A stretch of 64,000 nt of DNA. It comes from Marsupella aquatica. Lineage: Eukaryota; Plantae; Marchantiophyta. Below are positions 1-30,981 of the stretch, piece by piece. The notes under the pieces are model-generated. The model had not been told where the DNA came from and did no database searches. It was given only the letters and a program-made list of their open reading frames with translations. Made by a program: the position numbers and the translations under genes. Position 1 is the first letter of the stretch, and each line of letters opens with the position of its first letter. The DNA lies in assembly GCA_973895155.1 (NCBI GenBank), contig OZ316897.1:19657224-19721223 (forward strand), written 5' to 3'.

Positions 1-1269
1 AACGCACACCCAATTTAGCCCCCCTTTGAGAAGGATTCGATAATACTTGACGGCCAGGGGGACTTGTACTCTCAGATGAGTCCGAAGACTCAGAGTGCTC
101 ACTCAGACAAGGACCAAATACTTTTTGCTGAATATTTGGTACACTTAGAGCCTTTCCTTTCAACTTACTCATTGGAGTTGGGGGAAGCATCTCCAAGATA
201 GTGGTTTTACTAGGAGCATCTGGAGAAGTAACAGGACAAGGACAATCCGGGAAGGAAACATCATCCGAAATACCATCAGAATAATCGTCTGACTCATAAC
301 AGGCTGCCATTTCAAAAATTGCACAAAACTCACAAGGGAACACCTAGAACACCAAATGAACTCAAACTGAAAAATCGAAATGAGATATAGTCATGAATAC
401 GAAGCCCCTTTTATAGATTTTGGAAATAACTCAAAAACTTAATTAGCAATAAAATAAGAAAAAGGGCCACGCCCTTCATTAGTAATTAGTGACAAGGAAA
501 GAAATCTTTCATGAGAAAATAGTTTATTATTTATCCAAATCTCACAGGTTTACTTATGTTTTCAGGTCTTCTCATAATTTTATTTTTTACTTAAAGCATA
601 TGTTTTCATGCCAAACTCTTAAGATAGTGTATCAGTAATGCATTGGTCATTTTTACCCCATGTTTTCTTTGATGTTTTTGGAGACTACTCAATTGCAACA
701 AAAAATGTCTTCGATGACCTCTGTTTTTAGAGGTTTTTTTGGTTTTTCTTGTATTTCTTTTACCCATGGTATTTGTTATTTTGGGCCCAAATTTTGACTT
801 TTTACTAGATTCTTTCAAAATGATACTTGATTCCCTTTCATGAATTCATGAAGGGTTACGACCTTCCTGGATCCTGAAGTGGAGGTGGCGAAAGCTTCAT
901 GAATTCATGAACCCAAAAATTAGAAAATGCTAAGTTTGAGACAAATTGGACTGTCAGGTGCTTGGAGTGTGGGCGTGCATCTGCAAAGGGCGAACGGAAA
1001 GGAAGCTTGGCGAAGAGCTATGGTGGGCTGATGCTTGGTGCTGTGGAAAGCTCTTCCCTCAGTGATTGGTGTGGTCTGAATAGGAGTTGGGTTGAATCCC
1101 TAAACTGGAACGAAAATCGGGGGCGGACCAACATTTGGTGCAGCTCTGTAATTTCCTGACTGTTGAGGCGCAGATCGGTCGTGGAACAGAGGATTAATTG
1201 TGGAAGGGAGTGGAAGAAATTTGGTTAGGAGGCAGCAAGATCAAAAGCTGTCGTGCAAGTTTGCGCTCG

Positions 1270-1700
1270 GGAAGGGGATTGTCTCAGGCCTGGGGGGAAA
1301 TTGGAAAAATTCGGGGGAGGGGGGAGAAATTCTTGAAGGCCAGGGGAGGGAGGCAAAATTGGCAAAGGCCGGGGGGAGGAAAAATTGTCGAGGCGCAGCC
1401 AGGGGCGCGAGGAAGAAGCGCCGGCCGAGGGGAGGGGAAAAATTGTCAAGGCGCAGCCAGGGGCGCGGGGAAGAAGCGCCAGCCTCGGGGAGGAAAAATT
1501 GGCAAAGGCCTAGGAGAGGAAATAGTGTCGAGGCCGGGGGGAAGAAAAAGTGTCGGGGCGCGAGCGAGGGGGGAAGAAAAATTGTCGAGGCAAGGGGCGC
1601 GAGCGTCAAAGGTTGGGGGAGGGGAAATAGTCGAAGCGCCAGGGGAGGAAGAAATTGGCGAAGGCCGGGGGAGGAGAAACTATCGAAGGGCCAGGGGAGG
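1270..1700. repeat. Degenerate purine/GC-rich tandem repeat (~30-bp unit, GGGGGAGGAAAAATTGTCGAGGC / CCAGGGGCGCGAGG) upstream of the ParB-MTase gene
   Basis: About a dozen imperfect copies of GGARRAAAATTG(T/G)C visible; explains the low-complexity ORFs at 1198-1841. Confidence 0.75.
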
Positions 1701-2017
1701 TCCATTGACGAAGAGACGAGGTCCAAATCGGGGAGTACATTGCAAACGACAGTAAGTGGGGAGGGGTCGATCAGCTCGAGCATCTGCCAGGGAGGTGAAG
1801 GACATAAGCTAAGCCAAAATCAGGGAGAAAAATACCAGTGACACTCTTCTAAGCGGGAACAACCGTCTAGGCTCAGGCGCTGCAAATTCAACTTCCGACT
1901 CACACTGTCAAGGTAAGAACCTTGCTTCATGAAATCATGAACCTGAATTCTGCAACTGAACTTGAAAAACAAACAGAGCTGACTTTGCATTGTTGGACTT
2001 GATTTCAGGAAGTCAGA

Positions 2018-5000
2018 ATGGTTGAACCAAAATCACAGGAGAAGGTGTTAGACGCTATTTTCGTTGAGCATCCATTGACAGATTTTGGAAACTCTTCCTG
2101 GAGAATATCATTGGGTACAGAATCGTGGAAGAAGCCTTTTTTGATGTTGTGCATCTACGAGACCTTGCCTTCTGGAGGTCTTGGTTGGGTGAATTATGGC
2201 CGGATTGATGTCTTTCGACGAGGGGCTGATGTCCTCAATATGCTTATCACAACAAAGGAGACATCTACACTGATTGCAGTTGACAGTGAGAGATTTTCTG
2301 GAAGAGCTGCGCATTGTTACTTGCCTGATGACATTGAGATGATTATTGAGAAGGTGAAGAATCTGTCTGCAGAAGAAAGCTACAATGAGATTGCAGAGCT
2401 CATTGCTGGTTTTGTGTTTGAACATCATGCCAGCACATTGAAGAGTGCAATTCGAAAGTCTAGGGAGATTCTTCGAAAAGCAGCAGAGAAGAGTGCCAGT
2501 GCCCGTCCACCAAAGTCTGGTCCTTCTTCTGCTCCTTCTGGATCTCGTCCGAGTTTTGTCCCAGCAAGAAAGATGGTTGTTACATCTCCAATATCTGGTG
2601 CTGGTTCACAAATTGCAAGATCACAAGAGGGGACAACTGTGACTGGAGGATCAGCACAGGGCACTGCCGGTACTCGGACTTCATCAAAGAAACGTGGACC
2701 AGAGGGTTCTCAAGGTGCAAGACCAAGTCCACCAAAATCCAAGAAGCAGACGTTAGAAAAAGTCCCCACTCATCTGGAGCAGAAGGCTCAATCTATGTCT
2801 ATGGATGCTCGGGTGGTGTACCAGGAAGGGATTTTGATGAGGTGTGGAGTTCAAGAGGAGACAATCACAATTGACATTGCACAACTTCACCCACCTGTTC
2901 GGGAGAAATCTTTGGAGTTGCTAGTGTACCAAGTAAGGCATATCCATCCCTACTTTCTTACATAGTTGACAACAAGGATGAAAGCAGCTGGAGCTAGTCC
3001 ATTGGCAGCACCTTTTGTTCTCTTGGTTGATCCCAAGGAGTGCCCAACTCGAGCTGATTTTGATTTCTCAAAAAAGAATGATTACCACTATTACGTGATT
3101 GGGGGAAATCATTCTGCTTGTGCAAAGGCAGACCTAGCATTACAATTTCCCAACAACAAGTCGTACAGGAGAGTGCAATCTTGGATCTTTGCAGGTCTGT
3201 CTATCCAGGAAGCAAGGAACTTAGCTTGGAGTCATAATATAGACTCTGAATTTCGTCAACAAATGAGCACCATCCAAAGAGTGAATTACATTCACATGCG
3301 ATTTGTAGAGAATGGATCATCATCAAATGTTGATTTCAAGAAGGAGTGTGCCACTGAAATCAATCTAAAGGACTGGGGTGTACGTAAAGATTATGAGGTT
3401 CTGAATGCCAATGATAATTTATTTCAGTTGGCATTTTGTAAGGATCTTGTTTGGTCTTTCATACGGCAGATCTTTGATAGATGGGAGAATTGTGAGATAA
3501 AAGGACAGAAAGGAGATAAGACCAAGAAAAAGATGTCCAAGTCTGGAGATGCTAAAATGCTATGTGAGGATATGAAGTTGACTGAGTGGAGACACATGCA
3601 GGCATTGAAAGATCCGGACATGATCTGTCCAGTGCTACAAAGGGTTTTGGCAAAGGAATTATCTCTTCAAGAGATGGGACAGGAATTTCAACGACACAAA
3701 TTCCAAATGCAAGTTCAAAAAGCATTTCTTACCTGTCTTCACGAAGAGAGTTGGAAGAATTGCAAAACCAAGTACCCAGAACACTGCACTGATAATGTGC
3801 TGAAGAATTTTGTTCCTGTCTTCCAGACTTGGGTAAGTTTATTTGAGATTGACTGAGCATTTGTTTTACAGTTTTATTCTTAAGTACATGTAGGAATCTC
3901 ATGTACCCAATTTTGTTTTCTCAGAAAGACAGCAGCTCCCGAAAAAAGAAGGGAGAGAATGAAGAAAGCAAAGAGTTGAAGTCCTTCCCAGATAAGTTCA
4001 ATGCACATATTGCACAAGCACAGAACTGGTTGGCAATGAAGAAATCTTGCCAAGAGACCCAGGGAAGTGAACTTCATCCTAATGCTTTTGAGCATCCACA
4101 TTTTGGGGATGTGTACTATGATATCTTTACACACGATGCTCAGAGGTTGCACGAGGTAATCCCATCACGAGCTTACACATTGGCTTTGGCAGATATTCCT
4201 TATGGGTTTGGAATGACTGCTTGTCTTCACGAAGACAATGTTGGATGGGGTGTGGAAGAGGTGACCAAGATGGTTCAGTCCTTCAAGGTTGTCACCAAGG
4301 CAAATCTTTGGCGAATTATCATTCATCATAGTATTGACCAGTATGATGTTGTCAAGACTGTCTTGAAAGCTGAGTGTAATGGTGGTTTCCAGAATTGTAT
4401 TTGGTAAGAAACATTTCAAAAGGTGAATATGTTTTTTTGGTGTTCATGATTTCATGATGTTTGATTTTGAAACAAATCCATAATGCAAGTTTTGGTTTTT
4501 GCAGGGTGAAAGACAATGTTAAGAATGCAGGAGGTGCAAGGCTTAACAGCAATTTTGAGTGTTTCACCATTGGCTTTCATAGTCAGGATGGGAAACGGTC
4601 TTTGGAGCATTTCAATTTTAAGACTAATGAGTCTCAAAATAATGTGGTTGTGTGTCCAGCTGTGACCAATAAGTTGAAACACAACGGGGACAATAAGATG
4701 GTGAACTTTTACCAGAAGCCAAGAGTGTTATTGGATTGGGAAGTTACCCACTTTAGCCAGGTTGGAGACTGGGTGCTAGATATTTGTTCAGGGTCAGGCA
4801 CAGGATTGTCTTCCTCTTTGGCACAAGGAAGACATTGTGTTGCTATAGAAATTGATGAGCGCCAGAGTAGTGTCTTGAAAGGGAGAATTCTAAACCTGGT
4901 GGACAACATTGAGGAAGATGATGGCAAAGGCATGGTGGATTTAGATGTTGATGTTCAAGAGACCATTCTACCAATACTAGAGATAGGAGTTGGAGAGGAG

Positions 5001-5063
5001 GAAATCATAGGACTTGACTCTTCAGGAGTTGTTGGAAGTGTTGAGGAAACAAGAGATGATTAG
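2018..5063 (+). pseudogene. Intron-containing ParB/sulfiredoxin-like domain + beta-class N6-adenine/N4-cytosine DNA methyltransferase; one premature stop
   Basis: ParB-like APFVLLVD...YYVIGGNHS; motif IV-like LALADIPYG; CIWVK..NSNFECF; motif X/I YQKPRVLL..FSQVGDWVLDICSGSGT; motif II GRHCVAIEID. GT-AG introns 3833-3924 and 4404-4504 join the ORFs in frame (Trp codon split TG|G). In-frame TAG at 2963-2965. Confidence 0.85.
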
Positions 5064-5499
5064 CTGAGGATATTTCTGTAAGACTTTTTAGGGTTGTTTT
5101 AGTTGCATAGAAGTAGACTTTACTTGCAAGTTTTGAGATGTCAATGGCCTTGGAGCCTAGACTATGATATAAATGATTGTTTTTGACAGGTCAATTCTAT
5201 GAAAATCAAGTTTTGAATATGTTTTGTCTCAAACATTGATGTAAAGTCTAGTTTAAAATGCAAAGGGTGAATGTCAAACAAATATGCTGATTTTATTGCT
5301 TGTTTTAGGACTACATTTCTAAAAATCATAATTTTTTGGAAAAAGGAATTAAGTCCTTAGACCCATCCTTTAAGGCTTCTTGTTATTGGTGGAAAGCAAG
5401 ATTGAGGGGTACCAAAAAAGGATCTCCAATGTCTCCACCAAAAAGGACCTGAGACTCCTTTGAATGCAATAAATAGGCACTAGTACATTTTTGACAACT

Positions 5500-5995
5500 T
5501 TCCGATACTCAAAATGCGACTATTTTGTCATGTCCGAACCCGAGAGAATCGGACGTTGTCCAATACAAATACCTTCGTAATGTCTGATGTGCACCGCATC
5601 GGATTTAGTTAGTCCGATGTGTTCCCTAACGCAACATCGGAATGTTTCCAAAACTAAATAAATCAGACATTTGACCAGAAAAGTATTGTCAAGGGTCCGA
5701 TCTTCAGGTTATCGGATACAATGTGCGTTAGAGACAACATCGGATATTGTCCGATGTTTATTCCAACGGACATGGTTTTCGTAATAGAATACTACGGACA
5801 TAAATTGCGTAAGGTAAAGAATCGGAAACATTTCCGAAGCGGTCAATATCGGACCCCTCTGTTGGAATATTGGACAAGGGGTCCGATGTTTCCAATATTG
5901 GATGTGAGTGTTCCGATAGTTGTGATATCGGACAATTGCTACGATTGAGCCTTTTGTGCTCCGATGCATATCCGATGCAAGTTTCATCGGATAGA
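5500..5995. repeat. CACTA subterminal repeat array (TCCGA/TCGGA in both orientations)
   Basis: Many TCCGAT/ATCGGA motifs directly inside the TIR, typical of En/Spm subterminal binding sites. Confidence 0.75.
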
Positions 5996-6182
5996 CCATT
6001 GGACACTGGTTATCTTGAGGTTCTTAGTTGAGTGGGGTTGAGAAAAAAATTAGAGATACTTTATGGAATATGTTTTATGCAAGAGTGGACATTGAGAAAC
6101 AAATATAGTGCCGAGAAATATATAATGTCGGGAAAATAAACACAAATATGGTAGGGGGCTAGCTATAGTTGCTACTTACTAG

Positions 6183-9100
6183 CTAAGTGGTGGAGGGGAT
6201 GTCATCATCTTCCACTACAACTACGTTGGATCTATCCTGGACTATGGATCGTGATCGAGGGATATATGACATCACAATAGACCAATTTGAGTCATCCGGA
6301 TAAGGTAGGTAAAACATTGCTCAAGGTGATGTGGGAATGCAAACGGATTTGAAGACCTCCAATTTGAGCTGATAACACTTGTCTTCAACCGAGTAAATCC
6401 GCATGCATCATCTTCATATGTACGATTGTGGCCCACAAGATTCATCTTGAACCATTTGCACTTCAATACCACTTCCTCCAAAGTAGTATGTGCATGGTAC
6501 TTCACAGTTAGGATCTCCTCAATCTTTCCATAATGAGCGATAGTGGACCGAATGGGATTCCTGTCCGATGTGCTGCTCTGTGAATCCTGGGTGAACCAAC
6601 CCATGACCCCACAATCTTGTGTAGCTGCCCTCTTCTCATCAAGTCGTTCCACACAAAAGTGTCTTCCCTTGGACCACATGGCAGTCCGAGTTGTGACTAT
6701 AAGTAGTGGACCATGAACAAGGGTACAAAGCTTATCAGTCACCTCTAGATAATGCAATACACTCTACCCTGTACCCACCAAGGCATCCACTTCTAACAAC
6801 TTTGACTTCATGTATGGGTGAAACTTAGGAAATATCCGTGGTCGTCGACTATTTTGCTTCCCCTCCTCATAAAACGATGTCCACTCCCCTACAACCTCTG
6901 GTGAGTTGTACAACATAAATGTTGTGAGTTGCAAACGCTCCGCTGAGCTTAAGAGACGCTCTTTTGATGCCCCAGTGAGTCTATCATCCTCGTAGTTCGC
7001 CTCTCGTGCTGCCTCATCTATCCATCCCCTAGGAGCATTTGGATCTAGTGTGGCAACTATGTTTGTACAATAAAACATACTCTCTGCTCCAAGATGACGC
7101 TCTGCAATGCTACCTTCCACCCTAGCGCGATTAGAGACATACGATTTCATCACTCCCATATAACGCTCTACCCAATACATCCATCGACAATGCACTGGGC
7201 CTGCAATTACAACCTCACGCACTAAATGTATGAGAAAATGAACCTGACCATCAAAAAATGAGGGAGGGAGTGCCTTCTCCAACTTGCACACAACCTCTAC
7301 TCCAAATGTCTCCATTGCAGCAGTTTCATCTTGGCTCCTGTACCTCCTTCTGACATACCCATCTCAAAAGCTTTCCCAATGACCAAAGGGCATCACGAAG
7401 TTCCTCACTACCCAATCCAATAATCGCAACTGGAATGACATGTTCTAGTAACCGATGATAATCATGTGTTTTCAAGTAAGATGGCCATTTTGGAGAATCA
7501 TCCCCCCCAAATGCTTTTCGGAGATTTGCGCCATAACCTGTGGGAAACCTCATTGACCCAATACGTCTGCAAAACTCAGTGCGCTCTGCCCTACTCAAAA
7601 CCCAAGGAGGATGGATGTTGGGGGGGTCACCAGGGGGGTCCAAAGATGGCCAAAAACCAAGAAGACCATGCATCCCCATCTCCTCACAACTTTCTCTCTA
7701 ATTGTGGTTCTTTTCCCCATATAGATGACGAATCAATGATCTGCCCACATTCCCCTCAATGTGCATCGGATCTAACAAGTGATTAATGGGCAACTCTGAC
7801 CAATATGGCAATTGTGACAATGCAGACAAACGGGTCATGCCACATTGGAGAATTTGTAATGGATCATCTAGGTCTTGAACTCTTTCCCATACCTCTCTCC
7901 AATATGTTGGACCCTTTCGCTGAGGTTGAGGACGAGTGTCGGGTTGGCCATCTTCAGTATCATACAAGAAATGATCACTCCTCCAAGGATGGTCTTCTGG
8001 AAGATATTTGGTATGGCCAATGTAAACTATCTTACGCAAAGTACTTGACTTGCGTCTTGCCACACCCTCCAAATCTGGTCCGCACGAAGGGCAAGCTCTA
8101 TAGCCTGATGTTTGCAATCCAGAGATACCCTAAACCCTAAACCCTGCGCTTGATCAATACACAACCAGCCAATGAAAGTAAGTTAAATGATACAAATTAT
8201 AACCAAAAAAATTTAATTAATAAGCATGGTGTAAATAGATAGCAATGGAAATAAGGGTTTAATACCCTACCTGGCAAATCATGCATGGTCCACATAAGAA
8301 TCATGGCCTTCATGGTAAATGTGCGGGATAAACCTCCAATGTTGTCACGTCCGTCATAACAATCCACCCCTCTCCAAAGTTTCAAAAGCTCATCAATCAA
8401 GGGTTGCAAGTAAATGTCAATCTTTTTTACTTGCTTAGGACCAGGGATGATCATTGAGAGTAGTAGATGACCTTTCTTCATGGCCATCCATGGAGGGATA
8501 TTGTAATTTGTGAGAACTACAGGCCATACTTAATATGGCTTAGCTTTACCTGCTAATGCAAAATGACTGATACCATCTGCTGCCAAGCCAAGTCGAACAT
8601 GTCGCGGGTCAGTTTTGAACTCACCCCATCTGCCCTCTACAAATCGATTGGCAAGAGAGTCTACCATCATCCGCATGGTACTAGAGTCTGTACCCATATC
8701 CAAACGATGTTGTGAGTGCCAGACCGTATACTCAGCCAACTCTGCACAACGATATTGATGGCGCAATCGAGGGATGAGAGGAAAGTACCGCATAACCTTT
8801 TGAGGCACCTTCCTCATCAACATGTCATCACGGAACCGCGGCTTCTCACACATAGGACATATAATTGCATTCTCATGCTCACCCCTGAAAAGAATGCAAT
8901 CATTCACACATGCATGTATCACTTCATATTTTAGGCAAATGGACTTCAACACCTGTTTAGCCTCCTTCCAAGAGCTTGGCATGTTGTTGCCTGGTGATAA
9001 AATACGATCATGTAGGGTACAAAAAACATCATCCAAAAGTAGGTTGCTTGCCCCATGTCTTTGTTGCACATTCAACAACAACATTATTGCTAAGAGCCGA

Positions 9101-9413
9101 GATAGCCTACTCCCCTCAAATATGCGAGTACGAGCATGACGTTGAGCCTCTTCCCATTCCTTTTGCTGCCCCCCCTAGAGACATGCGGATGAGTGTTGTT
9201 GTCATCCTGGCTACCCATGTCCTCCATACCAATGTCCGCATCATTGTCATAGAACTGATCCATGAGCTCATCCATGGCCCTCTCCTTGTCAACATGATCT
9301 TCGGTTGGATTGCCCCCCTCATGCTGTACCTCAGTCTCCTCCCCACGATTGGCCACCATGGCCTCAACAAGGTGTTGCCGCATAGCTCGTGATATTACCC
9401 CAATATCAGGCAC
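6183..9413 (-). pseudogene. CACTA TnpD/Tnp2-type transposase (Transposase_21, DUF4218 and DUF4216-like regions), frameshifted
   Basis: Motifs IHACVNDCILF, CPMCEKPRF, MRYFPLIPRL, DPRHVRLGLAADG, IIPGPKQ..IDIYLQPLIDELLKLW, WTMHDLPG, HLLDPMHIEGNV, LKTHDYH, PPSFFD..H..GPVHCRWMYWVER, HYGKIEEI, VLKCKWF; multiple stops and frameshifts. Confidence 0.92.
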
Positions 9414-9857
9414 TACATATTGGTTCTATCATACAACATGCATCCATGTAATGTCATCAACATCAATCTTGCCAACAATCTCATTAATCCAACATTAGAA
9501 ATGGAAAATAAATTTCAGATATATATATGTATATGTAAGCCCAAGAAACTAAGTTGGACGAGAACATAGAGACAATTTTCTCGGGGGGGTCACTTCCACG
9601 GAAGTGACACATCACGTGCGACGAAGTATAGGCCCATTTAAATGGGTGTGGCGGAAGACTTCCAAAGTTTGGTGGAAGAACACATAGGGCATGTTTTATT
9701 GATTGGTCGACTTTAAAGAACACATAGGCCTATTTAATTGCAAAAAATACTTTCTATAAAGTTTTTAGGGGTTTTTTAATAAAAAATGACAAAACTTTAA
9801 GAAAGAAAGGGCTTTGCAAAAAAATATTTTTCACTTTAAAGTTAGGGGGGTCAAACC

Positions 9858-10828
9858 CTAAAACGTCGCACGCGATGTATGACCCTCCATATAGTGACCC
9901 CCCCGAGACAATTTTGGTGCATCCCTGTCATAATCACACAATAACTCATCTCTTGCTCTAATGGTCCTAATGGCCACTGTCATGATGTGGTCATCCATAT
10001 GTTTCACAAAATATGGGTCTCTAGGTGGACCAAACATTTGGATCCACTCTACATTAGCCTCCAAATCTCTACCTCTACCTGTGGTACTATTGATGTATCC
10101 TGCTAAATTTCCATTCCTAACAGGGTCACCGTCAATCATCCGACAATGCCACGGCCTAGTGAACACCTCGTCTGGGTCTGAGTCCATCCTCAATGCATAC
10201 ACCCCCCAACTTGGGTGTTGACGCAACCAAATGTTCCAACTCTTTGTGTTATATACAGCCCCAATATAAGGGAAAAGGTGCTCTCCATCGTAGCCACGTC
10301 TCCATGGCTTTGGAGGGACAACAATGTCATCCAAAGCATATAGACCATATCCTATATCAGCACCAATAGAGGACTCCTTCACTATCCAAGGACGGCCCCA
10401 TATCTCCACAGGTTCATCAATAGGAATGTAATCTGGAAATTTGAAGACACTGGGAGAAAAGTCTTTCAAAACGTCTGCAGCCCTGCCAGTGAGATAGGAT
10501 ACTCCAAATCGGCCCTCAACGCCAATGTAATCTACATTTGTTGGAGGACGATCACTACCTAACACCCCCTCCCGGATGTCTATGTGGTCCACAGGCTCGT
10601 ACTGCCGTCTACATCTATGAGACCGTGCTCGTGTACGTAGGACTCTTGAAGTCCCAACCTCTGGCCGAGATACTGGTTCTCCCTCTACATGCTCATGTAT
10701 GGGGATAGGAGCTGGGGGGCTAAGAGGAGGATGGGCAGGGGGGCTGCAAGCAAGTCTCTAGCCCTTGCTAGGAATCCTTCTAGACACACAGCCTCATCAA
10801 CCGAAGGAGGTGGGGGTCTACGGGGCAC
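9858..10828 (-). pseudogene. SET-domain protein-lysine methyltransferase exon inside the CACTA element (one frameshift near 10740)
   Basis: GYGLYALDDI (motif I), FPYIGAVY, GNLAGYINST (RxxNHS equivalent), ANVEW, AIRTIRARDELLCDY (ELxxDY); AG acceptor at 10829-10830. Confidence 0.8.
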
Positions 10829-10917
10829 CTATTTCACCACACAATAAATTAGTGTTATTTAAATGCAAGCCCAATTGGAGTTTCATGAATGGAATTAAAG
10901 GGGAGACATATATATTA

Positions 10918-11149
10918 CCTGGCTAGGCAAGTACCCTGGTGTATCACCCTCATGACGGCCATAGTTCTCAATGTGCTCACAAGTCTCCCAGGCATGTCGG
11001 ACCACAAGTCCCTTGCATCTCACACACCAGCAAGGTATGGGCCCTAGTGGAGCACAAGAACGCTCAAGAGGAGGGGGTGGAGGAACCTCCCCCTCTGACG
11101 AGCTTGTGTCTGAGTCTGAATCCGACGTGGAACTATCGGATGTAGACAT
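10918..11149 (-). CDS. First coding exon with CACTA transposase-associated Cys/His domain (PCWCVRC...HIENYG)
   Basis: ATG at 11149; CxCxxC...H..G pattern of the transposase-associated domain; donor CAG|GTAAT near 10918. Confidence 0.65.
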
Positions 11150-11994
11150 CTACATATCATACACATCCAACATGTAAGGCGGATTCAACAACTTATCATG
11201 TTTAAAACCACAATTAAAGAGATATATAAACATCAATTGCCCTACCTCAATGATACCCGTGCTTTGCCGTGCCTACTGGGCTGTATTCTCTACACACAAG
11301 GTGTGGGATATCCAAAATCTCTGCAGGGTGGAGATGAATATGGTTACACAAATGTTGCATAAATGCAAAAAAGTACTTGACTGACTTTTGGCACACGATA
11401 TATCAAACTTGCCAAAGCAGACCTCAATGTTCCAATCCAAAATGGATGGATGGGCCAGAGAATTACATCATACCTCATGGATGCGCGGTCTCACACTGTG
11501 CATAGTGCATTGTCCAAGAACAAAACCCTACCTAGCTACCCCCCTCAACCCAAAAAAAACAAACCTAGCTACCCCTCGATCAAAACCTAGGTACTGCACA
11601 TAAAATCCAATCACAACCATTAGTGTAACAAAGGCTTAACATTATCCTCAAAAAATGTCTAACAATATCCTATGTATTAAAACCCTATACCAATAAATCC
11701 CAAAAATCAGTCTATTCATTAAACTGCAAAATTCTTTGATCTTTGGACATTTAGGCACCAAAATATATATATTTGGGCATAAGAATTGTACATTTGGGCA
11801 ATGCGAGTTGTACATTTGGGCACCAGATGTTGTACATTTGGGGGATCAAGATTGTACATAGGAGAAAATGAAATATTAATTTGGATTCTAAAGAAAAACA
11901 TTTGGGTGATAATAATGTAAAATATGTTGGATAAGAAGTAGAACTTACTTATATTGATTCAATTTGACTAATAGAATATAAGTGTCTACTAACT

Positions 11995-12587: not shown

Positions 12588-15500
12588 TTACTCAAAAATC
12601 CCTTCCATGTAGGTTTTGAGTGTTTTCAAAACATTCTTGGGAATGGTCAAACCTCTATCAATTATATTTTCTTCTCTAGAGCGTGACTTGAATCCATACA
12701 TAGCAAAATTAGCAAATTGCCAACGTTCAGTGGCACTATCAAACCCAGGATCCACCTCCCAAGTCTTAGTGGTCTGAAAGCAATGTGAATATCGCACATG
12801 ATCCGGTGCATCATCCTTACCATGTTTAGGCCTCCACCATTGCACTTGGAACATAGGAGCATACCATGTACTAGTAGGAGAATTCTCATTGCATTGCAAG
12901 TCTCCTGAAGGAACTTCATGGTTGGGTCCACAACACCCAAAGCTCTCACCAACCAGAAACGTTCTTTCCCATTCTTCTTTTCCCATTCATCCTCTAGACG
13001 GAGAAATACAAAGTGACCCTCTTGAATGTCCTGCAGAGGAATCCAACGTGCAAGTTCTCGCTCGTGTCGAGCACCAACAAATGTTGCAACTTGATCCTCC
13101 ATCTCTTCCAGGTACTCATTCTGAAGCTCCACCATTTGTGGATTCTGTGTACTACTACTAGGCTCCCCCAATGGTTCAGAGGTTCCTGTACTATTAACCT
13201 TGTAACCAGTTCCGTGGTTGGTTTTTGGCCAGAATTCATATGTCAATGCTAACTATATTTCTGCCTCCCCTTCAATTGTAAGCTCCCCAGATAATACTTG
13301 CACCACCATCTCCCAATATTTCACCAAAGGAAATCGCTCACGATATGCTATAGAGGTCTCATCCTTACGTACAACTCTTCTTCAAAAACTCAATGTAACG
13401 ATTAAGGAATGGGATGATTTCTTCAACCTTGCCTCGTACATCCCCGGAGATGGGTTTTGCAAATGGTTGACCTTCTGGTAAAATGAGAGCATTGGTGCTG
13501 GAATCAGTTCTCCAAATGGACCTTCCGGTTGGAGGGTACCAAGGTTGTTTCACATGTGCTTTGTATTGATATATTGGAACATTATCTCTCATAGAGAAAA
13601 GAAATGTCACTGGTTTTGAGTGACCCTCTATGTCTTTTACCTTGAAAGTTTTTAAAAACTCTTTGTAAGCTGCAACCTCTTGGATCAACCGTGGGACAGG
13701 ATGAATGCTTTCACACTCCCAAACCTCAGCCATCAACCCCAAGAGGGTAGAAACCTCCTTGTACTTCACTTGGTTGGATACTTTTGAAAACAATGCATCG
13801 ACATCCTCATGGGTGTGACCAACCATGAGAAACGACATCTGCACTGTTTCAAAAACCCCTCTACTAACAAGCTCACTGCAAAATGCCATCACGTACTGGT
13901 TTTTGTTATCTTTCCCTGAATTATCCATTTGCAAGGTCAGGTGCCTTGGCAATGGTTTGAAAGAGGTAGACGTAGCCTTGGGATCAACACCAAAGTCATC
14001 TTGGTCATCTTCAGCTCCTTGAAATCTAGCAATTGAGACTTTTTTGGGTTCTAAGTAACCTGCGAGAAATGCTTCAAAGTCCAAAAGAGATTGAAAAATT
14101 GGCCTCGTTGCAGCCCAATATAATCCTTCAAGGAGGTCTCCAGATTTGTCCCCCTTGTAATCCTCCAGATCTCTAAGGCACTTTGCCAATGATGTCACTT
14201 GTGAAGTCTGCATCTCCCGGCCAAAGCCCAGTGAAACTGAAGTGAGCATACACTTCGAGATCCCTTCCATGGGTCAACATCCCAATGAGCGCAATGGGGA
14301 GCGGTTGACCACTACCAGACAATGATTTAGGAGTGGGGACCAACCTAGGGATCCATGTCTTGGCCTGGTCCATCTTGTCATGTATAATGCAAAGATAGTT
14401 CTCAGGATCCTTCTTCGCAAGAACCCTATGAGCATAGTAAACATATCTCCTAGACATTTGCTCACGAAGATGGCGAGCTCTTCTTTCCTCAATCTCTAAA
14501 CGCTCTTTCTTTCTCTTCTCCCGCATCAACTGATCTTTGAACTCAGTGCAAAGTGTACACTTTGCAAATGCACTTCCCTTGTGAAAGTCAAAATTCATGA
14601 AGGACTCACTCCAGAGTTTATACATAGTGTTTTCACTCACCTTCACGTAGCCATCTAATTCCATTTTTGAGTATACCTCCTCAAAAATCTCTTTCTTCGT
14701 GAAACAAGATGGAAGTCTGTACTCAACCGTGTCAGTCCCGTGAGACCCTCCATAGGGAAGATGCGGCATGGGTTCTCCGTTTTGGGTTAGAATGGACTCC
14801 AACAAAGCATGAGCATGCAAGGTGCTTCCCCGTGTCTTGTGTGAACCCTTGTTTCCGTGGAATCCAACCGTGCAACCTACTTCATATTGATTTTTGTAAT
14901 CATAATACTTGGCAGTGCTGAATCCATGCATTTTAATAAATGCACCCTTGCAAACAAGTCTACTTCTTACAACAAAATATCCTTTTGTCTCCACTTCCTT
15001 CTCCCTATAGCCAAAAAGAGTAAGAATGTGACTGGTTTTGTTGTCGCTTGACATCCCATGGTATTCCCTCCTTATCGCTTGTAGGTCTTCTCTCGGCATG
15101 CTGAGGCAACACTTCAACTTACAACAACCTTCTCTTTGGATGGAGTCAATTTCCTCCTCTATGATTTTCAGTATGCCCCGAGACTCCAAGTGCTTCTTCC
15201 TTTTTTCATCTGGGTTGACCTTCGTTCTCTTGATGAAATTATACGAGCGCTTCGAAAACTCAGTGTCACCTTTCATATCTACCTCTAGATGATCTCGACC
15301 ATCAATAATTGGTTTCGGAGAAACCTCTTCAATGAGATCCAGAAGAAAAATACCCCTTGATATCAGCAGAAGTGAACGGACGGCCCACCTAACAAGACCA
15401 GGCACTCCTGGGGAGATATTTGGGAAAAATAGAGGGTCAATCATGCGTGTGACAACAACCCCAACGTGATCTGGTCCAAGAACATCATCATCAATTGCAC

Positions 15501-16182
15501 CTGACTCGAAAGGAACTGTGATGATGCCAACCCCCACTTTGGTCCGATTATCCTCAACATACAAAATTTTCCACCTCCTTGGTCATCCAATTAGAACGCA
15601 AACTATAATCGTTGAAATTATAATTTGAAAAAACATCCCGTGTGGACAGGTCGTTTAGCATATCCTGGGAAGAACTCCTCCGAGTAACATCCTTTAAATT
15701 CTAGAATACAAAAGTGTCCAATGCTTCCTGAACGGTATCGGCTCCATTGTGAGGAAAGGGTAACCTCTCCCTTCCTTGAAAAACTTCACATATTTTCACA
15801 CTAATCCTAGAAGTGCCAAGTCTTTCATTGTGACAGGTCTCATCGGGATTCGTCTTGAACACAAATCCACGAGCCACAATCTGATTGCCGATCCAGAGCT
15901 CGACTTCATCACCAGATATAATCGAGTCTCCAAAACTTCCCACCGAAGATTTGTCTGGTACAAAACCGGGAACCGTATCCTTTGTAGAACAAGAGACATC
16001 CATTTGTGTTGTCGCTGGAGTTGACTGTGACTTCAAATATGCAAAAGAGGCATCCGCAGGAGTCGACAGCATCAAACAGGGTCCTGATTGGCGGCAAAGG
16101 GTAAGGAATTTCTCGTGATCCCTCATAGCACTTCTCAATGAGAACTCCTATACGATTACTTCCCAAATCAACATTACGCACT
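12588..16182 (-). pseudogene. Sola-like DDD transposase with N-terminal Tnp1/En-Spm-like repeats (copy A)
   Basis: IIHDKMDQAK, LQMDNSGKDNKN, FLMVGHTHEDVDALFS, GCCKLKCC, AKCTLC; several frameshifts; collinear with 27297-30981. Confidence 0.8.
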
Positions 16183-16394
16183 GAGAATCCCAAATGGGAT
16201 ACGCCGTATCTGGACCGCCATTAGACTCACAAGAGAAAATGTTGTTTTCCCAGGAAAGCTAAAGCTTGAGTCGGTGTCCGTCACTGAACGGCAGCAAGAG
16301 CTTCAGTGCGTGTTTAGTCAAACTACGCCTGCGAAACAATCAGCAATCCATAAGACTTTTCCCATCATTCCAAGAAAACTCTAGGTAGATACCA

Positions 16395-16870
16395 CATGGG
16401 ATACCCCGTACCCCACTTCGCATCCAATCTCTTTTTTTAGCTAAAGAGAAATCAAAACTGGACATTTGAAGGGTGAATCCCAAACGGGATACGCCGTATC
16501 CCATTTCGCATTCAACGTTGAGGTTTTGACATTTGGAGTCTAAGATGCTTCATATTTGGAGGTTGGATGTGACATGGGATACCCTGTATCCCACTTCGCA
16601 TCCAACCTCTTTTTTTAGCTAAAGAGAAATCAAAACTGGACATTTGAAGGGTGAATCCCAAACGGGATACGCCGTATCCCATGTCGCATTCAACGTTGAG
16701 GTTTTGACATTTGGAGTCTAAGATACTTCATATTCGGAGGTTGGATGCGATATGGGATACCCCGTATCCTACTTCGCATCCAACCTTCTTTTTTAGCTAA
16801 AGTGAAACAAAAACTGGACATTTGAAGGTTGAATCCAGTTCAAACTGGACATTTGAAGGTTGAATCCTTG
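16395..16870. repeat. 178-bp tandem repeat (~2.5 copies), each unit with two GGGATAC-N3-GTATCCC palindromes
   Basis: CTAAAG anchor at 16441, 16619 and 16797; isolated palindrome copies also at ~16195 and ~17184. Confidence 0.85.
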
Positions 16871-17379
16871 AATCCATGAAGATTCTCACTTGTTAGTCAA
16901 ATCTGATTTTTGGGGAATACAAGTTTGTATAGACGGTGTGCATTCGTCGAGAGTAAGAGGATACAGAGCGAGAAAAAATGAGTGGAAAATTCTCAAGCGG
17001 TGATCTCCTATTTATAGTTTTCTCTCTGACCGTGGTTAGTATTTGACTGCAGTTGCATCGCAGTCGGTTAAATGTTACCGTTGAGAAGAATTATTTGGGA
17101 ATATTCTTGACGGGTAAACCAATATCGGCACTTTTACTGCGTTTGTTTTAATTTTTTTTGGAATTCCGCGGTTGGATCCAAAATGGGATATGCCGTATCC
17201 CATCTTCGTATTCGTGTCGATTTTTCCCATTTTTTAAATTTGAAAAACTAGTTTTTAGGGGGAATACTAATTCTGTATCCAAGACTTTTTTGCTTTAGAA
17301 ATTTTTTTTGCCGCGGGCAAAATGAGAAGTGTGGTCACACTTCTCGTTTGGTCCGTCACTGTGTTGCCATTGATATCAT

Positions 17380-18357: not shown

Positions 18358-19433
18358 TTAATCATCTAAAATTTCAAATTCTATGTCTCCATGAATATGT
18401 CTACATGACTGATTTGAACAAGTGAGTCGCTCTCCATTTGGGTCATATAGTCTGTCACGAGTGCAAGTGTCTTTGGGATAACGGTTTTTAAACTTAGAGG
18501 TGAGATCCCTAGTCTTTAGAACTTCCCAGACAAATCGGCGAGGATTTTCTCTGAAGGGACCTGCATAAGACTCGCCCAAACAGTTGTTGACCACATCTTT
18601 CATATCATCTTCGGTCAGGTTCTCAAATGTAGGGTAAGATTGTACCATATCCCTCACTTCCCAACATATCTCATCTCCAGTGACATCCAAGATGGTATAC
18701 TCAATCTTGGAACGCCAAATCTTATTTCCCCACTTATGGGAAAGTAAAGCATAGATTGCAGCATTACTTTCACGGTCATCATTTATATTAACAAATGACC
18801 AAAGTGGATTGTTGACAGATATATATTGTCGGATGTCATAAGCCTTCCACAATTTTCTAAGGAATGGCCAAAGTATCTCTGGTAGAAAATTGTCACTCTC
18901 GGCAATGTGTGATCTGAAGGGAGTTGGGAACAAACCACTATACTGTGGATTTGCAAAAGCCTTCACTGGAGAGTCATCAATAAGTAGAGTGTTTGTATCA
19001 TCATACTTGTCTCCAAAATGACTCCACACCACACGCAAATCCTTCAACATAATATTTGCTTTCCCATCTGCTACGTCCGGTCTTTGTATGCCAGTATCAA
19101 AAGCATCTTCTTGTGTGAAAACAAATTTAAATTGCCTCCGCTCCTCTTCTTTGAAAATCAAATTCATCATTTCATTAGTTCTTGGCCTCCCCGCACAAGT
19201 CCACAATGCAACATCAAAACCTTTGAAAGCCACCTCCAAAAATTGGTGCAACCCTGGCCTTTCCACGTACATGAAATTGAATCCACCCCGTCTCCCCCAA
19301 TGCACACCCCGCACAGTTGTTGTAGATCTTAACGGTCCCGAGCTTTTTGTTTTCACACAATCCCAACAAATTTTGTTCAGGTCCAAAATCAAGAGTTTTC
19401 TTCTTATATCAGAGTGCAATTTAGGAGTGAAAT
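18358..19433 (-). CDS. FCP1/NIF-family HAD phosphatase-like domain with C-terminal CCCH-like finger; probably the last exon of the cargo gene
   Basis: KLLILDLNK, ERPGLHQFL, FDVALWT, MLKDL..VW, NTLLIDDSPVKAFANP; C-x14-C-x4-C-x3-H near the C-terminus. No ATG of its own; TTTGCAG acceptor ends at 19434. Confidence 0.8.
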
Positions 19434-19581
19434 CTGCAAAGATCCAAATGAATCAAAATTATATCTAAAAGATATAAAAGAAGAACTTAGGGTCGAACCT
19501 GGATCCGACCCGACCTAATGGGGAAAACAAACATTTTATTTTTGAATGTCAAAGCATTTTGATATATCAATGTAGAAGTAC

Positions 19582-22500
19582 CTTGCTCAAATGCTTTGTC
19601 TTGGACCAGGGTACCGCTTGCTGAAGGTAGACCAATAATATCCTTCGATGGAAGAGATGCTATGACAAAACTTTGGTCTGTCCATATATGATTTCCAAAC
19701 ATAATATTTTAGATTATTGTGAAAAATAGAAGAACGAAACCATAATATTAACCTCCACTACTAAATGACCCATATTCATCTATCATTTTATCACCTAGAT
19801 CACTTTGGATATCAGAATTGACGCCAACAGGAAGCTGCTCCACCAACGTTGGCGGCGCAAACACTGGACTCAATCTCAATTTGTCTATTATGTAATCAGG
19901 TTTGACCATTAACTTAGGCGCACCAAGTGGAAGGTTGTCTTCAATTGCTTGTGCAATACCAACTTGTAGGTCCGTGGTGGGTGTAGTGGCCCCAATATTC
20001 TGCCAACCTGCATCCAATGTGCACGATACCTGCGGTCTCTCGGGATGCAATTTTGATACTTCAGGGTTGAGAGGATTTGCTGGAGGGTCACCCTCAGGGC
20101 GACCCGACATCACTATGTTGAGTTGAGGTAGCCCTTCAACACCGTAGGTAGTAATGCCAACCATTTCTGTTGCTCGAGCATCCCAATTTCCGCCAAAATC
20201 CTCCTCTACCATAGGACTTGAACCTCCATCATCATGCTGCAACTCACCATCCTCAAGGTCAACTCGCTGAGGGCCCGGTTGGGGGTTGTCCATAGGCCCG
20301 CAAAGAACACTTAGATGAGCTCTACTAGGACCATGTACTCCCATCCGCTCTTTCATAAGGGAGGGAATCCTGTTGCACAAAACCCTTGCATATGCTTGGG
20401 TGAAATGGTGTTCTTGCAAAGTGTCTGAATAGACAAAACAATCTTGGTATGCCAACAAGGCCACCTTCAAAACCTGCCCTCCTGAAAAAAAATCGAGGAC
20501 AGTCTCCCCCTCACCGGAAAAACATTCAATAATATTTTTGAGCATGTGTCGGGGCTTGGCATGCGGATTGACAAATCCTCCTCGACTTCCGACCATCTCA
20601 AATATTGGAGCTTGCCGCAATAAATCTGCCATATCAAATGCGAGAGACTGCTCCTCTGTCTCATTCTCTTTTCCCTTGCTTTTCTCTTGCTTGTCAGCCT
20701 TCACTTCAATATTGAAATCACAGTCAACATCGAGGTGAAAACTAAATTTTGAATTGAACTCTGGCTTAAACAATTGATTCCAATCAAAATTGTCTTCACC
20801 TGTAATTCCAGCAAAAATGACACATTGGCATCGCCTCTTCCAATAACTCTGGCGTGGTTGTCTTCATTAGATTCTCACTGAAGAACGTCAAGACAGGCTC
20901 TGTTCGTGTGCGCCCAACTCCACCAAATTGTTTGCAGTACAACCCGTCTAATCTCACCATTAGACTTTGAGGGAAAGCCTCCTTCACAATGTTCTTCCTT
21001 AATAAACTGCTAAGGTAGACCTCCCCAGCTGCTCTTCGCAATTTTGTCAACTCAAGTTGAGATCCCAAGGCCGGCATGATGTTGACCACCGAAGCCCACG
21101 ATGTCCCCCCGGGAAACTTCTCCTTGTGCTTCTCAACAAAGTACTCAACAATGACTTGCTTCAATTTAGTCATTACCTTGATGGTATGAGCCATATCTGG
21201 CATTGACACCAGATCCATCTTGTTGGAGGCATCTTTCTTGAGAAGTGCTTTCTTCTCATAAACCGCGGTCAATATATCAATGATATCCTTAGAACTGATC
21301 TCCCCTTCAAAACATCTAAAAAGAGTTGGCATGACCAACTTTAGTGGCCGCGGCCCACCATACTCTCCTGCCCCGCCAGGGAGCTTCCCTGCCAACCAAT
21401 CCCAACAAACAGTTTGCCATAAATGGAAAAGCTTATCCTCAACAAAGAGCAACCAAAAAATGGCTTTCAGGCTCGACTTTCCCATTGTTATCTTTGCGAG
21501 GGCAACCAATCCTGCATTTACATTCATCCACCAAAAAACATGTTAGATATTTAAACTTAGAAACTTCAACTAGCTTCTCTGCCTCGCCCCTAGAGCGAGG
21601 CAAAGAAAATGACAAAGCCATATGAAAATGGTTGGGGCAATCATTGTATTCATAGTTCAATTCCGTTTGGATCGCTCCAAGAGCGAGGCAAAATTAAACT
21701 ACAGTTCCAACTAATGAAAATGTTTACCTGGTATTTCTGGTTGTCTATACTTTGGTTTGTTCCAATTCCTGGACGCGGTGGTTTCCCACATTCATCAAAT
21801 TGCCTTCTCGCATGAACAACTGTCTCTAGAAAACAAGACTTAAACTGCATGGTCTGATTTACTGCATTTGAAAGGCTCAAGTGCTCAACCAAAATTGCCC
21901 TTGGAGTGAGGTCTGATAAGATCCTCGCTTTCCAATATTGGAGTTTGCTAGCAAGATCAGTTAGCTTGGCATCCTTGTCTGCCCACCCTTGAATCCATTG
22001 TGCAGCCTTTGCGGAATGTTGCCCACTGATTGCAAGAAATTGTATCTCTTGTTTCTTAACACCAAACAAAAACTGCTTCCGATCGCGTGCGGTATTGTCA
22101 AAATGTAACAACTGCTTAGTGCGCTCTAGAAATGGAATCAAATCTGCAACATGTGGTTCCTGGCCAGGGTTTTTCATCATTGATTTTGCTATCTCTAAGG
22201 CATGAGCCTGGTTGAACATCTGATACACAAAAACTGCAGTAGGCGGAAGAATACTTTTAACCGGGATTTCAAAAACCTCCCTGATTCCAAAAGTGTAGTA
22301 TTGCTCAATGTTCGGCAAAGCTTTCTGCCCCTCCAATACATCTCGTTCCTCTGGTGCATCTGTTGGGCATGTATCATCCTCCGGATCCAAGACCAACCTT
22401 GCTTTTGACGCTGACACGGGCTTTGATTTTCCAATCTTGGCCTTCTTCTTGGGCTTCTTGTCGGAGTCCTTATCTTTCTTCTTCAACGCCGCCTTTTTTT

Positions 22501-23792
22501 CTCTAGTACTTCCTTCACTCCTTGGCTCTCTTTGTTTTCTCTTCTTTTGTGTTTCAGCCGGCGTCATTTCTTTGGCCTTCATCTTCATCTTCCCCTTACC
22601 TCGATGCTTTTCTTCCTTCTTCTTTTGAGTTGAAATCCACTTCATGCAAGCATCTTCGTCAAACTCATCAGAGAAAATAAAACTCTTATCAATTGCTTGC
22701 TCATATGAAAAGCGTGTTGTTTCAATCATCCTCTGGACAACCCATGTGTTAGGAAGATCTATAAGGTCCGGATGATCATGCATGTACCGCTTCACAGAGA
22801 GGAATCCAAAGACATCATCAACCCCACTTAATTTGAATCTTCCATGCCTCTCAAGAACATCCTCTGCAGTGAACCCATCTGGAAGAAATCCCATTGAACA
22901 AATACTAGCCTCCGAGCGTGCTATCCACTCCACGTTGATAATTGACGAGTACATCTTGATTGGCAAGTAAAGTCTCATCCACTGAGATCTTTCTCTGGAT
23001 TCAATAATGATTGTAACATTGCGGTTGTCACTGCAATTTACAAGGACCATAGGGCCCAACGCAACTATCTTCTTGTTGTTCATTGTCTCAGCAGTGATTG
23101 CCTTGATACAAATCATTGACAAGTCATTCTCCATGATCCCTACTTCAAGTGCCCACAAAAATCCTGCCTTATCTTGTCCAGGGAAAATAAAGTCCTTGAC
23201 ATCCTCGGCCATAATATTTAACTCTGGGGATCCAAGTTGTTATCCTGGCAAAACAAATTGAAATGACAAACATTAAAGCAAGAGATCTTCTATGTCGCCT
23301 CGCCCCTAGAGCAAGCTGGAGACAAGGTCTACATCAACAAACATGTGGGTTGGGTCGCTCCTGGAGCGACCCTAAGAAAACTTAAATCAAGGTCCAACCA
23401 ACAACAAATTTGGATCGCTCCTGGAGCAACCCTAGGAAAACTTAAATCAAGGTCCAACCAACAACAAAGTTGGGTCGCTCCTGGAGCGACCCTAGGAAAA
23501 CTTAAATCAAGGTCCAACCAACAACAAAGTTGGGTCGCTCCTGGAGCGACCCATGACAAATCTAAGGCAAGATAGAGCGACCCGTCAAAGACTAACTTGC
23601 ATCAATTGTTGAATCATACTTACGTGGAACTGTGATATGAAATCCCTTTGAGGCGGCCAAAGCAGATTCCACCGACATCTTTAGTAAAGTGTCTTGAGAA
23701 TCATACTCAAAGATTTTACTAGAATCAAAGTTCAAGGACTGCCCAGAACTAGAAGTGCTAGTAGAATCATCAGAACTAGAGGAAGTGGCCAT
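19582..23792 (-). pseudogene. Second, divergent ParB-like + partial amino-methyltransferase gene (multi-exon cargo of the Sola-like element)
   Basis: ParB-like FLAISGQHSAKAA; SAM-binding half HAKPRHMLKNIIECFSGEGETVLDFFSGG; N-terminal region and layout parallel the gene at 2018-5063. No motif IV visible; frameshift near 20830. The 5' exon boundary is tentative. Confidence 0.7.
23347..23552. repeat. 60-bp tandem repeat x3.5 containing the palindrome GGGTCGCTCC-T-GGAGCGACCC (probably intronic)
   Basis: Near-identical units recur at exactly 60-bp spacing. Confidence 0.9.
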
Positions 23793-27119: not shown

Positions 27120-27296
27120 GACCTTAGAATCCTGTTGTGTAAAGCCAATACACATAAAATCCCAAATATTTTTTTCCTTTAAATAGAATTCAAATGTTTA
27201 GATCTAAAATTGTAATATCTAGAGTAGTGCTTATCAGTATGCACATCAGTTGAACAATTTTTAAATGTTTTTGGATGCAGAGATCCTTTCGCTACC

Positions 27297-30200: not shown

Positions 30201-30981
30201 ATACCGCGAGAGATTTCCTTTGGTGAAATATTGGGAGAGGCTTGTTATGGCACTCTCTGAGGCACTTACAATAGAAGGGGAGGGAGAAAGACAATTGTCA
30301 TTGACAACTGATTTCTGGCCAAAGACTAACCATGGCACAGGTTACAAGGTGATTTTGGGGACCTCTCAACCTTCAAGTGAACCTACTCAAAATTCAGAGA
30401 TGATGGACCTTCAAAATGAGTACATGGAAGAGATGGAAGGTCAAGCTGCACCCTTCGTTGGTGCATGAGAAGAGCGAGAACTTGCACGTTGGATTCCCCT
30501 ACAAGATATTCAAGAGGGTCACTTTGTGTTTTTACGTCCAGAGGATGAATGGGAGCAAAAAAATGGCAAAGGGTGTTTCTGGTTAGTTCGAGCTTTGGGT
30601 GGTGTGGATCCAAACCATGAGGTTTCTTCACTAGATTTGCAATTTAGTGAAGGGTCTTCTTCAAGGTTTTCTAAGAGCATTCACCTAAGTAGCATTCCTA
30701 AGCGGTATGCTCCTATGTTCCAAGTGCAATGGTGGAGGCCTAAACATGGTAAGCATGATGCAAAGGATGATGTTCGATACGAACATTGCTTTCAGACCAC
30801 TAAGACTTGGGAGCTAGATCCTGGGTTTAACACTATCACTCAAAGTTGGCAGTTTGCAAATTCTGCAATGTATGGATTTAAGTCAGGTGCCAAAGAACAA
30901 AATATTATGGATAGAGGTTTGACAATTCCCAAGAATGTTTTGAAAACTCTCAAAACTTACATGGAAGGTATTGATGAGTAG
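27297..30981 (+). pseudogene. Sola-like DDD transposase (copy B), three N-terminal Tnp1/En-Spm-like repeats, several stops and frameshifts
   Basis: Repeats VAIGTI..DPKDTIHNICLGKNRIGV / VSKGVV..NPMDTCHSERLGVGRVSI / VATGVI....LLGPEHVGV; HDKMD, MDNSGKDNKN, VGHTHEDVD; stops at 28869 and 30466. Confidence 0.82.

Follow-up and report, generated by a model that had tools for sequence, protein, structure and literature searches.

The closest described counterparts of the gene reported here come from algal transposons. In the brown alga Ectocarpus, the element Sola1-1_Ec32 is described as carrying, on the strand opposite to its transposase, a gene for a 1104-amino-acid protein with a ParB-like domain and an N4-cytosine/N6-adenine (N4C/N6A) methyltransferase (MTase) domain; its authors suggest that the protein binds and modifies its own element, cite Iyer et al. 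2011 and a Bostrychia paper, and list the gene in their table as Ectocarpus-specific, with a Physcomitrella Sola1 transposase as best match (PMC12477816). In the red-algal Plavaka elements of that Bostrychia paper, the domains are described on separate proteins, PAG2 with N6_N4_Mtase and SET and PAG3 with ParB and a 2-oxoglutarate (2OG) oxygenase, and arrays of inverted repeats lie beside the ParB gene (bioRxiv 10.1101/2025.02.11.637652). The passages of these algal papers that bear on the matter propose self-binding and self-marking, name no site for an MTase fusion and report no assay. The gene considered here, called ParB-MTase below, lies near the left end of a 64,000-nucleotide stretch of the liverwort Marsupella aquatica (contig OZ316897.1; "the window" denotes this whole stretch), where it is likely arranged head-to-head with a DUF7869 transposase gene and accompanied by copies of a palindrome.

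This kind of transposon accessory gene is already published as that of Ectocarpus Sola1-1, a precedent that the initial annotation of the window had missed. What is new here is its extension into land plants, as a branch of its own, and a parS-like candidate palindrome. Our literature search returned neither a land-plant account nor a site for an MTase fusion; Iyer et al. 2011, a Cell 2025 Marchantia paper and the bioRxiv supplements may cover part of this. The reading we prefer, to which we give an even chance, is that of an accessory gene of a large plant DNA transposon; proteins made from its intact copies would recognise the element's own palindromes and write N6-methyladenine (6mA) nearby. 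A candidate site of 14 bp, conserved across loci whose synonymous sites are nearly saturated, makes the idea of self-marking testable.

Gene Structure and Methyltransferase Domain

The spliced frame (Table 1) has 2853 nt, or 950 codons and a stop, with one internal stop. Its two introns are predicted from splice signals and homology: introns 1 and 2 lie at identical codon positions in three related metagenome loci (L001, L002 and L003), and 11 of 12 homologous open reading frames (ORFs), called unspliced, terminate at or just past the Trp that precedes intron 1. Both introns are thus supported by homology, and analysis of the spliced frame confirmed what the initial annotation had read from the sequence, namely two introns with a split Trp codon, motifs in beta order and a single disabling stop, the TAG of codon 316. 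The exons have a GC content of 0.42-0.43 (0.29-0.30 in the introns), and the observed/expected CpG ratio of the coding sequence is 0.30, as in methylated plant repeats. Residues 1 to ~155 (2018-2480) form a domain conserved in close homologues, with W-x-V/I-x-LG and GRID motifs; it matched no family, and in L001 and L002 an additional intron apparently follows it.

Exon 3 matched the Pfam family N6_N4_Mtase (E 7.9e-8, 33 bits against a cut-off of 26.7), as did 27 of 36 alignment members at E <=1. No Pfam family was matched by exons 1 and 2, and the match to the CcrM profile was weak (E 2.2e-7, far below its cut-off). Motif IV precedes motif I in the protein, which is the beta-class order. The fold was tested on the AlphaFold model of a full-length homologue, P0104 (32-34% identical to exon 3), with a predicted local distance difference test score (pLDDT) of 73, mostly >85 in the MTase part. 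In the structural search, this model matched CcrM (E 1.2e-12), M.BceJIV and M1.HpyAVI first, the three at E 1e-12 to 4e-10; CcrM, M.BceJIV, M1.HpyAVI and M.RsrI took ranks 1-11, bdelloid N4CMT first appeared at rank 14 (E 6.5e-10) and PvuII at rank 32, and MboIIA was also matched. METTL3/14 followed at E 2.4e-7 and weaker, with the DNA MTases ranking higher, and many viral structural matches carry N4-specific labels. Among the best 20 of 574 records, phage matches to P0104 cover the MTase only, at 23-29% identity; when metagenome and viral contigs were scanned with single proteins, there was no match. The beta-class amino-MTase fold of the initial annotation is borne out by this model and by the Pfam score, and is firmly predicted for the family.

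Motif IV was compared in a family alignment drawn from 241 proteins, of which 64 had sufficient coverage; with identical domains removed, and with the window and L001-L003 included, it has 62 rows. Asp opens the motif in 56 and Ser in one of the 57 rows with residues there (the other five have none, and some rows are near-duplicates). DIPY, found in the window and L001-L003, occurs in 13 of the 62 rows, DPPY in 12 and DFPY in 7. Asp, Pro and Tyr of this motif, QKP and DxxxGxGT are retained together from Chara to Ginkgo, and the constraint on the DIPY motif is evident across both loci and family rows. Where the sources treat this motif, Ser is given as the mark of N4C enzymes and Asp as that of N6A enzymes (PMC4738411, PMC8885841). 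Because Asp prevails, 6mA is favoured over N4-methylcytosine (4mC) as the predicted product, and the initial comparison with N4CMT and DN4MT1, which have SPPY or TSPPY, proved misplaced.

Of 1908 candidates searched with exon 1, 12 proved homologous (54-70% identity), one of them from Calypogeia fissa; a search with exon 3 yielded 285 representatives at E <=0.001, of which the best 150 were listed. Among 30 proteins looked up and 12 profile-search matches, the named hosts are Chara braunii, Riccia sorocarpa, C. fissa, Adiantum nelumboides and Ginkgo biloba, a span that upholds the old age initially ascribed to the enzyme. MTase residues 665-900 are 67-80% identical among the window and L001-L003, at a proportion of synonymous differences (pS) of 0.58-0.75 and a ratio of nonsynonymous to synonymous divergence (dN/dS) of ~0.07-0.14. 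Synonymous sites of the ParB region are saturated between the window and these loci, and the constraint on the MTase region equals that on the ParB region. Judged from such codon comparisons, the family is shown to be under purifying selection. In a quick tree, midpoint-rooted without an outgroup, the window groups with Riccia, Ginkgo and Adiantum rows, apart from Chara (Shimodaira-Hasegawa-like approximate likelihood ratio test, 92). Prokaryotic, N4CMT and DN4MT1 rows are absent from this tree, so we claim neither an order of events nor a donor for the horizontal transfer that was initially supposed.

ParB-like Domain and Its Candidate Site

The ParB part was modelled from window residues 318-605 (pLDDT 68). 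The ten best Foldseek matches of this model are all ParB, Noc or Spo0J (E 0.053-0.27, 223-240 columns). VIA-align placed ParB-family chains in 11 of its top 12 rows (Z 4.0-5.2), KorB first, and these rows cover the N-terminal and DNA-binding parts and include entries of the DNA-binding domain alone. Used as a sequence profile against PDB, the exon-1 alignment matched nothing. A ParB plus helix-turn-helix (HTH) fold is thus likely on the model, the evidence being consistent but weak; of the initial claim of a ParB-like part, the structural side found this support and the profile side none. In ESM Atlas, clusters of fungal DUF3723 are neighbours of the ParB-HTH part, 2969-3832 (cosine 0.94, 174 of 256 features). 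DUF3723 is described as conserved cargo of Starship elements (bioRxiv 10.1101/2021.12.13.472469), and in these fungal elements it may be ParB-like.

The palindrome TCATG-N4-CATGA occurs four times in 1-5477 and nowhere in 5478-64000 (58.5 kb). There are four copies in L001, three in L002 and one in L003, against shuffle means of 0.005-0.02, although these counts are partly post hoc as the palindrome was first spotted in the window and the L001/L002 reading frames. An unbiased test of its conservation is given by the introns. Among gapped words of 5+5 letters with a spacer of 0-10, the palindrome is the sole word common to intron 2 of all four loci, intron 1 has no such common word, and 0 of 1000 shuffles yields any word common to the four. 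Identity between loci is at background in intron 1; in intron 2 it is 0.52-0.57 against the window and 0.64-0.65 among L001-L003, so these three are not fully independent. When the promoter regions of the window and L001 were compared by blastn, the palindrome again gave the top match. Its spacer varies (GAAT, ATTT, ATAT, CTAG). The transposase frame of L001 contains two copies, of which one has a mismatch; they are read as HDIM, a word present twice in each of the proteins P0223, P0224 and P0225. The palindrome is absent from the two DUF7869 transposase genes that lie further along the window. ParB, Noc and KorB read palindromes of 13-16 bp, and from its sequence and placement TCATG-N4-CATGA is likely a parS-like candidate site for the ParB-HTH part.

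Carrier Element and Copies

The divergent gene at the left edge of the window was identified through a chain of homology. Its first 21 residues agree with P0223 at 14 of 21 positions, a score that no other six-frame 21-mer of the window reaches (the runner-up has 10); BLASTP by itself gave E 0.29. In L001, a frame of the same position and orientation is 63% identical to P0223 (E 2e-81) and 41% to P0224, which are its full-length relatives. The C-terminal part of P0223 in turn matches a DUF7869 transposase of the window (E 1e-7, 19% over 232 residues), and both have CC-x3-C and C-x2-C. The divergent gene is read as a DUF7869 transposase on account of this chain, and a head-to-head arrangement with ParB-MTase is likely. 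From its motifs, DUF7869 is probably of Sola type.

On the other side of ParB-MTase, a CACTA/EnSpm element was considered as the carrier. It was rejected on account of the CACTA terminus and subterminal repeats at 5478, which stand between ParB-MTase and the Tnp2 domains at 6272-9174 in that neighbour. Its far end was not found; a 13/13 partner at 39253 pairs with the element starting at 37631. The element at 5478 is probably a separate neighbour.

The premature stop appears particular to the window copy. Position 2963 is C in most of the read depth of three public sequencing runs (177 of 197.7 in X1, all of 2907.8 in X2 and 1518 of 1556 in X3), depth not being taken as copy number and a fourth run, X5, having no cover there; codon 316 corresponds to Gln in 9 of 12 homologous proteins. 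Four contigs of one run span 2840-3200 with 130-356 aligned nt and 5, 34, 13 and 18 differences, and a fifth aligns over 34 nt only. Because several divergent contigs occur within one run, the family is read as multi-copy. Stop-free copies exist; on the best explanation, a single stop has inactivated the window copy, which would need intact relatives to act in trans.

Table 1. Features of the ParB-MTase locus and its flanks, by window position.
Feature	Position	Strand	Remarks
Divergent gene, likely 5′ end of DUF7869 (Sola-like) transposase	2-310	-	103 codons, runs off the window
Palindrome copy 1, perfect 16 bp	837-852	.	core TCATG-N4-CATGA at 838; shared promoter region
Palindrome copy 2, perfect 16 bp	896-911	.	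same core, at 897
G-rich short direct repeats (families D4, D10, D11)	1311-1700	+	between the two divergent genes
5′-untranslated region (UTR) intron, probable	1913-2008	+	GT-AG, 96 nt; from splice signals only; holds palindrome copy 3
Palindrome copy 3	1927-1940	.	within the probable 5′-UTR intron
Start codon ATG	2018	+	spliced frame of ParB-MTase
Exon 1	2018-3832	+	N-terminal conserved domain, fold unassigned; low-complexity linker; ParB/Srx-like domain; HTH-type and helical region
Premature stop, TAG	2963-2965	+	codon 316; particular to window copy
GGNH of ParB/Srx-like domain	3101-3112	+	residue 362
Intron 1	3833-3924	+	GT-AG, 92 nt, GC 0.30, phase 0
Exon 2	3925-4403	+	linker, then first half of MTase with catalytic motif IV
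Motif IV, DIPY	4192-4203	+	residue 695
Intron 2	4404-4504	+	GT-AG, 101 nt, GC 0.29, phase 2; Trp765 split TG/G
Palindrome copy 4	4444-4457	.	within intron 2
Exon 3	4505-5063	+	second half of MTase, QKP and S-adenosylmethionine (SAM)-binding motif I, acidic tail
QKP		+	residue 835, exon 3
Motif I, DICSGSGT	4779-4802	+	residue 857
Stop codon	5061-5063	+	spliced frame of ParB-MTase
CACTA/EnSpm element end (CACTA terminus, subterminal repeats)	5478-6000	-	3′ of ParB-MTase

Proposed Function and Alternative Explanations

On the preferred reading, an intact copy would make a dimeric ParB-HTH protein that reads both half-sites through its HTH region and would bind the palindromes in the shared promoter, the introns and the 5′ end of the transposase gene. 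The MTase tethered in this way would write 6mA on adenines near the bound palindromes, and the mark could keep the shared promoter active and the element transcribable, offset host silencing by 5-methylcytosine (5mC), or tune transposase output.

Several observations weigh against this reading. On the ParB side, all single matches are non-significant (best Foldseek E 0.053; Z <8), short helix matches outrank ParB in a wide structural search with KorB at rank 19, and no ParB profile was matched in Pfam, NCBIfam or PHROGs. The CTP-binding arginine motif of ParB is GxxR; the 16 motifs listed for this family are GGNH(S/T)xxA or GGGH(S/T/C/Y)xEAR, the arginine being absent from them and replaced by H-S/T/C, so CTP clamping cannot be assumed. 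On the MTase side, motif I is substituted in L001 and L003. Moreover, most members have another residue in place of the first Pro of motif IV (12 of 62 rows keep DPPY), which could weaken catalysis. As for the carrier, only 103 codons of the divergent gene lie inside the window and its catalytic core lies outside, and no terminal inverted repeat (TIR) or target-site duplication (TSD) was found, the left end being outside the window and no right end being identified; comparison of 5064-5477 with L003 and with the remaining window revealed none. The carriage by transposons proposed initially is backed by the divergent probable transposase and by multiple copies per run, and the TIR of the carrier is the part that was not found. 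Furthermore, the related loci available as DNA are three and metagenomic, and codon 316, the stop of the window copy, is a stop in the far diverged L001 as well.

In a first alternative, the palindrome is bound and the MTase is weak or non-catalytic; the protein would be an autoregulator of the divergent promoter like plasmid KorB, a reader or a shield. In its favour, most members have D-x-P-Y where DPPY is canonical, the family includes degenerate versions of the motif (DLPR, DFPC and DIPH among them), KorB tops the VIA-align rows, and a distant second gene of the window (19748-23239; see below) recognisably keeps the second half of the MTase only. However, the co-retention of Asp, Pro, Tyr, QKP and DxxxGxGT from Chara to Ginkgo, under a constraint as strong as that on the ParB region, counts against it, and we regard this alternative as unlikely, if the one to be taken most seriously.

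It is improbable, in our estimate, that the MTase acts independently of the palindrome, perhaps genome-wide, with the palindrome being bound instead by the transposase or by some transcription factor of the host. The palindrome could indeed serve either of these, which also counts against the preferred reading: internal transposase-binding repeats are frequent in DNA transposons, the motif also lies within the transposase frame of L001, and its spacer is variable. Yet its copies sit in the promoter and within introns of the ParB gene, at a distance from every terminus that was seen, the two later DUF7869 transposase genes do without it, and in the second ParB-like gene promoter and intron contain another palindrome.

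Another possibility, to which we give a slight chance, keeps the self-targeting and changes the product to 4mC, which would block or mimic host 5mC. N4CMT and PvuII are among the structural matches, as are the viral entries labelled N4-specific; in the portions of the literature that concern this point, 4mC is reported from a liverwort (bioRxiv 10.1101/2021.02.12.428880) and N4C enzymes are said to have evolved from N6A enzymes several times (PMC4738411). Against it stands the Ser expected of N4C enzymes in motif IV, found in 1 of 57 family rows. Finally, introns, old conservation and the METTL3/14 matches might suggest an RNA methyltransferase, or a gene domesticated by the host, that is merely located among transposons; this is very improbable in view of the several divergent copies per run, the copy-specific stop, the CpG decay, the divergent probable transposase in two loci and the higher rank of DNA MTases over METTL3.

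If the preferred reading of self-directed adenine methylation is extended to the whole family, transposons of streptophytes (Chara, liverworts, ferns and Ginkgo) would run an operator-and-methylase circuit with a private palindrome per subfamily, hidden in promoter, introns and transposase frame, and with 6mA as a means of escaping silencing. We put this forward tentatively, as a generalisation that is rather more doubtful than its starting point. The enzymes behind reported land-plant 6mA are debated; if the generalisation is true, transposons would be a sequence-specific source of plant 6mA, and the family would provide a natural eukaryotic site-directed adenine writer.

Other Elements in the Window

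A second likely cargo transposon has a unit at 18358-23239 (-) head-to-head with a DUF7869 transposase at 27228-30981 (+). Its gene at 19748-23239 (-) has a partial N6_N4_Mtase match (E 3.4e-5, below the cut-off) and no recognisable motif IV; its ParB label stayed unconfirmed in HHalign (probability 1.3%, E 0.04), though the GxH motif aligns, and ESM Atlas gave no usable match. A NIF (FCP1-like) phosphatase gene (E 3e-16) follows this ParB-like gene. The element has a palindrome of its own, ~TCGCTC-N3-GAGCGA, with 13 matches in the upstream region and one intron; it sits in 60-bp and 27-bp arrays, of which the latter looks interrupted by an insertion near 25330-26960.

The CACTA/EnSpm neighbour at 5478-11300 (-) comprises the Tnp2 gene and, upstream on the same strand, a SET-domain gene at 9858-10757 (E 6.5e-5), which is possibly a transposon-borne histone methyltransferase. 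A third DUF7869 transposase, at 12588-17203 (-), is ~80% identical to that at 27-31 kb; upstream of it are repeats of 178 bp whose basis is a GGGATAC..GTATCCC palindrome. In the pair of stretches 37631-39265 and 58927-60148, a non-autonomous CACTA element of 1.6 kb with an AAG duplication was noted, and the window has its matching empty site elsewhere; a 3.9-kb tandem duplication of 94% identity lies at 48160-55871 within a gypsy-like retroelement, and a long interspersed nuclear element (LINE) starts at ~61500.

Comparison with Known Systems

Ectocarpus Sola1-1 resembles the window locus in its domains and probably in its layout: a ParB-like and an amino-MTase domain are in one protein (1104 amino acids there, 950 codons here), the ParB-like one weakly predicted here, and the gene on the opposite strand is the transposase there and a probable transposase here. 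It differs in its host, a brown alga rather than streptophytes, and the passages describing it name no binding site. The Plavaka PAG2 and PAG3 share transposon-borne ParB and amino-MTase domains and inverted repeats by the ParB gene, whereas their domains are on separate proteins and their carrier is EnSpm/Plavaka.

Among enzymes, CcrM, M.BceJIV, M1.HpyAVI and M.RsrI are alike in fold and motif order, at 14-21% identity; unlike them, the window protein has D-x-P-Y, a ParB fusion and introns. Bdelloid N4CMT and Marchantia DN4MT1 are likewise eukaryotic beta-class amino-MTases of prokaryotic type, but are described as host genes with SPPY or TSPPY and with a chromodomain or no extra domain (PMC8885841, bioRxiv 10.1101/2021.02.12.428880), whereas the present family has Asp in motif IV, a ParB part and a transposon context. 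With bacterial ParB/Spo0J, Noc and KorB and their sites (parS, NBS and OB), the window protein would have in common a ParB-N part followed by an HTH, as predicted from the model, and a candidate palindromic site of 14-16 bp in cis; it differs in its weak scores, changed CTP arginine motif, lack of ParA and C-terminal MTase. In VANDAL elements of eudicots, the transposon protein VANC is described as targeting sequences of its own element for anti-silencing (bioRxiv 10.1101/2025.02.11.637652). VANC is an unrelated protein and induces loss of methylation, whereas ParB-MTase would write a mark and could thus be the writing counterpart of VANC anti-silencing.

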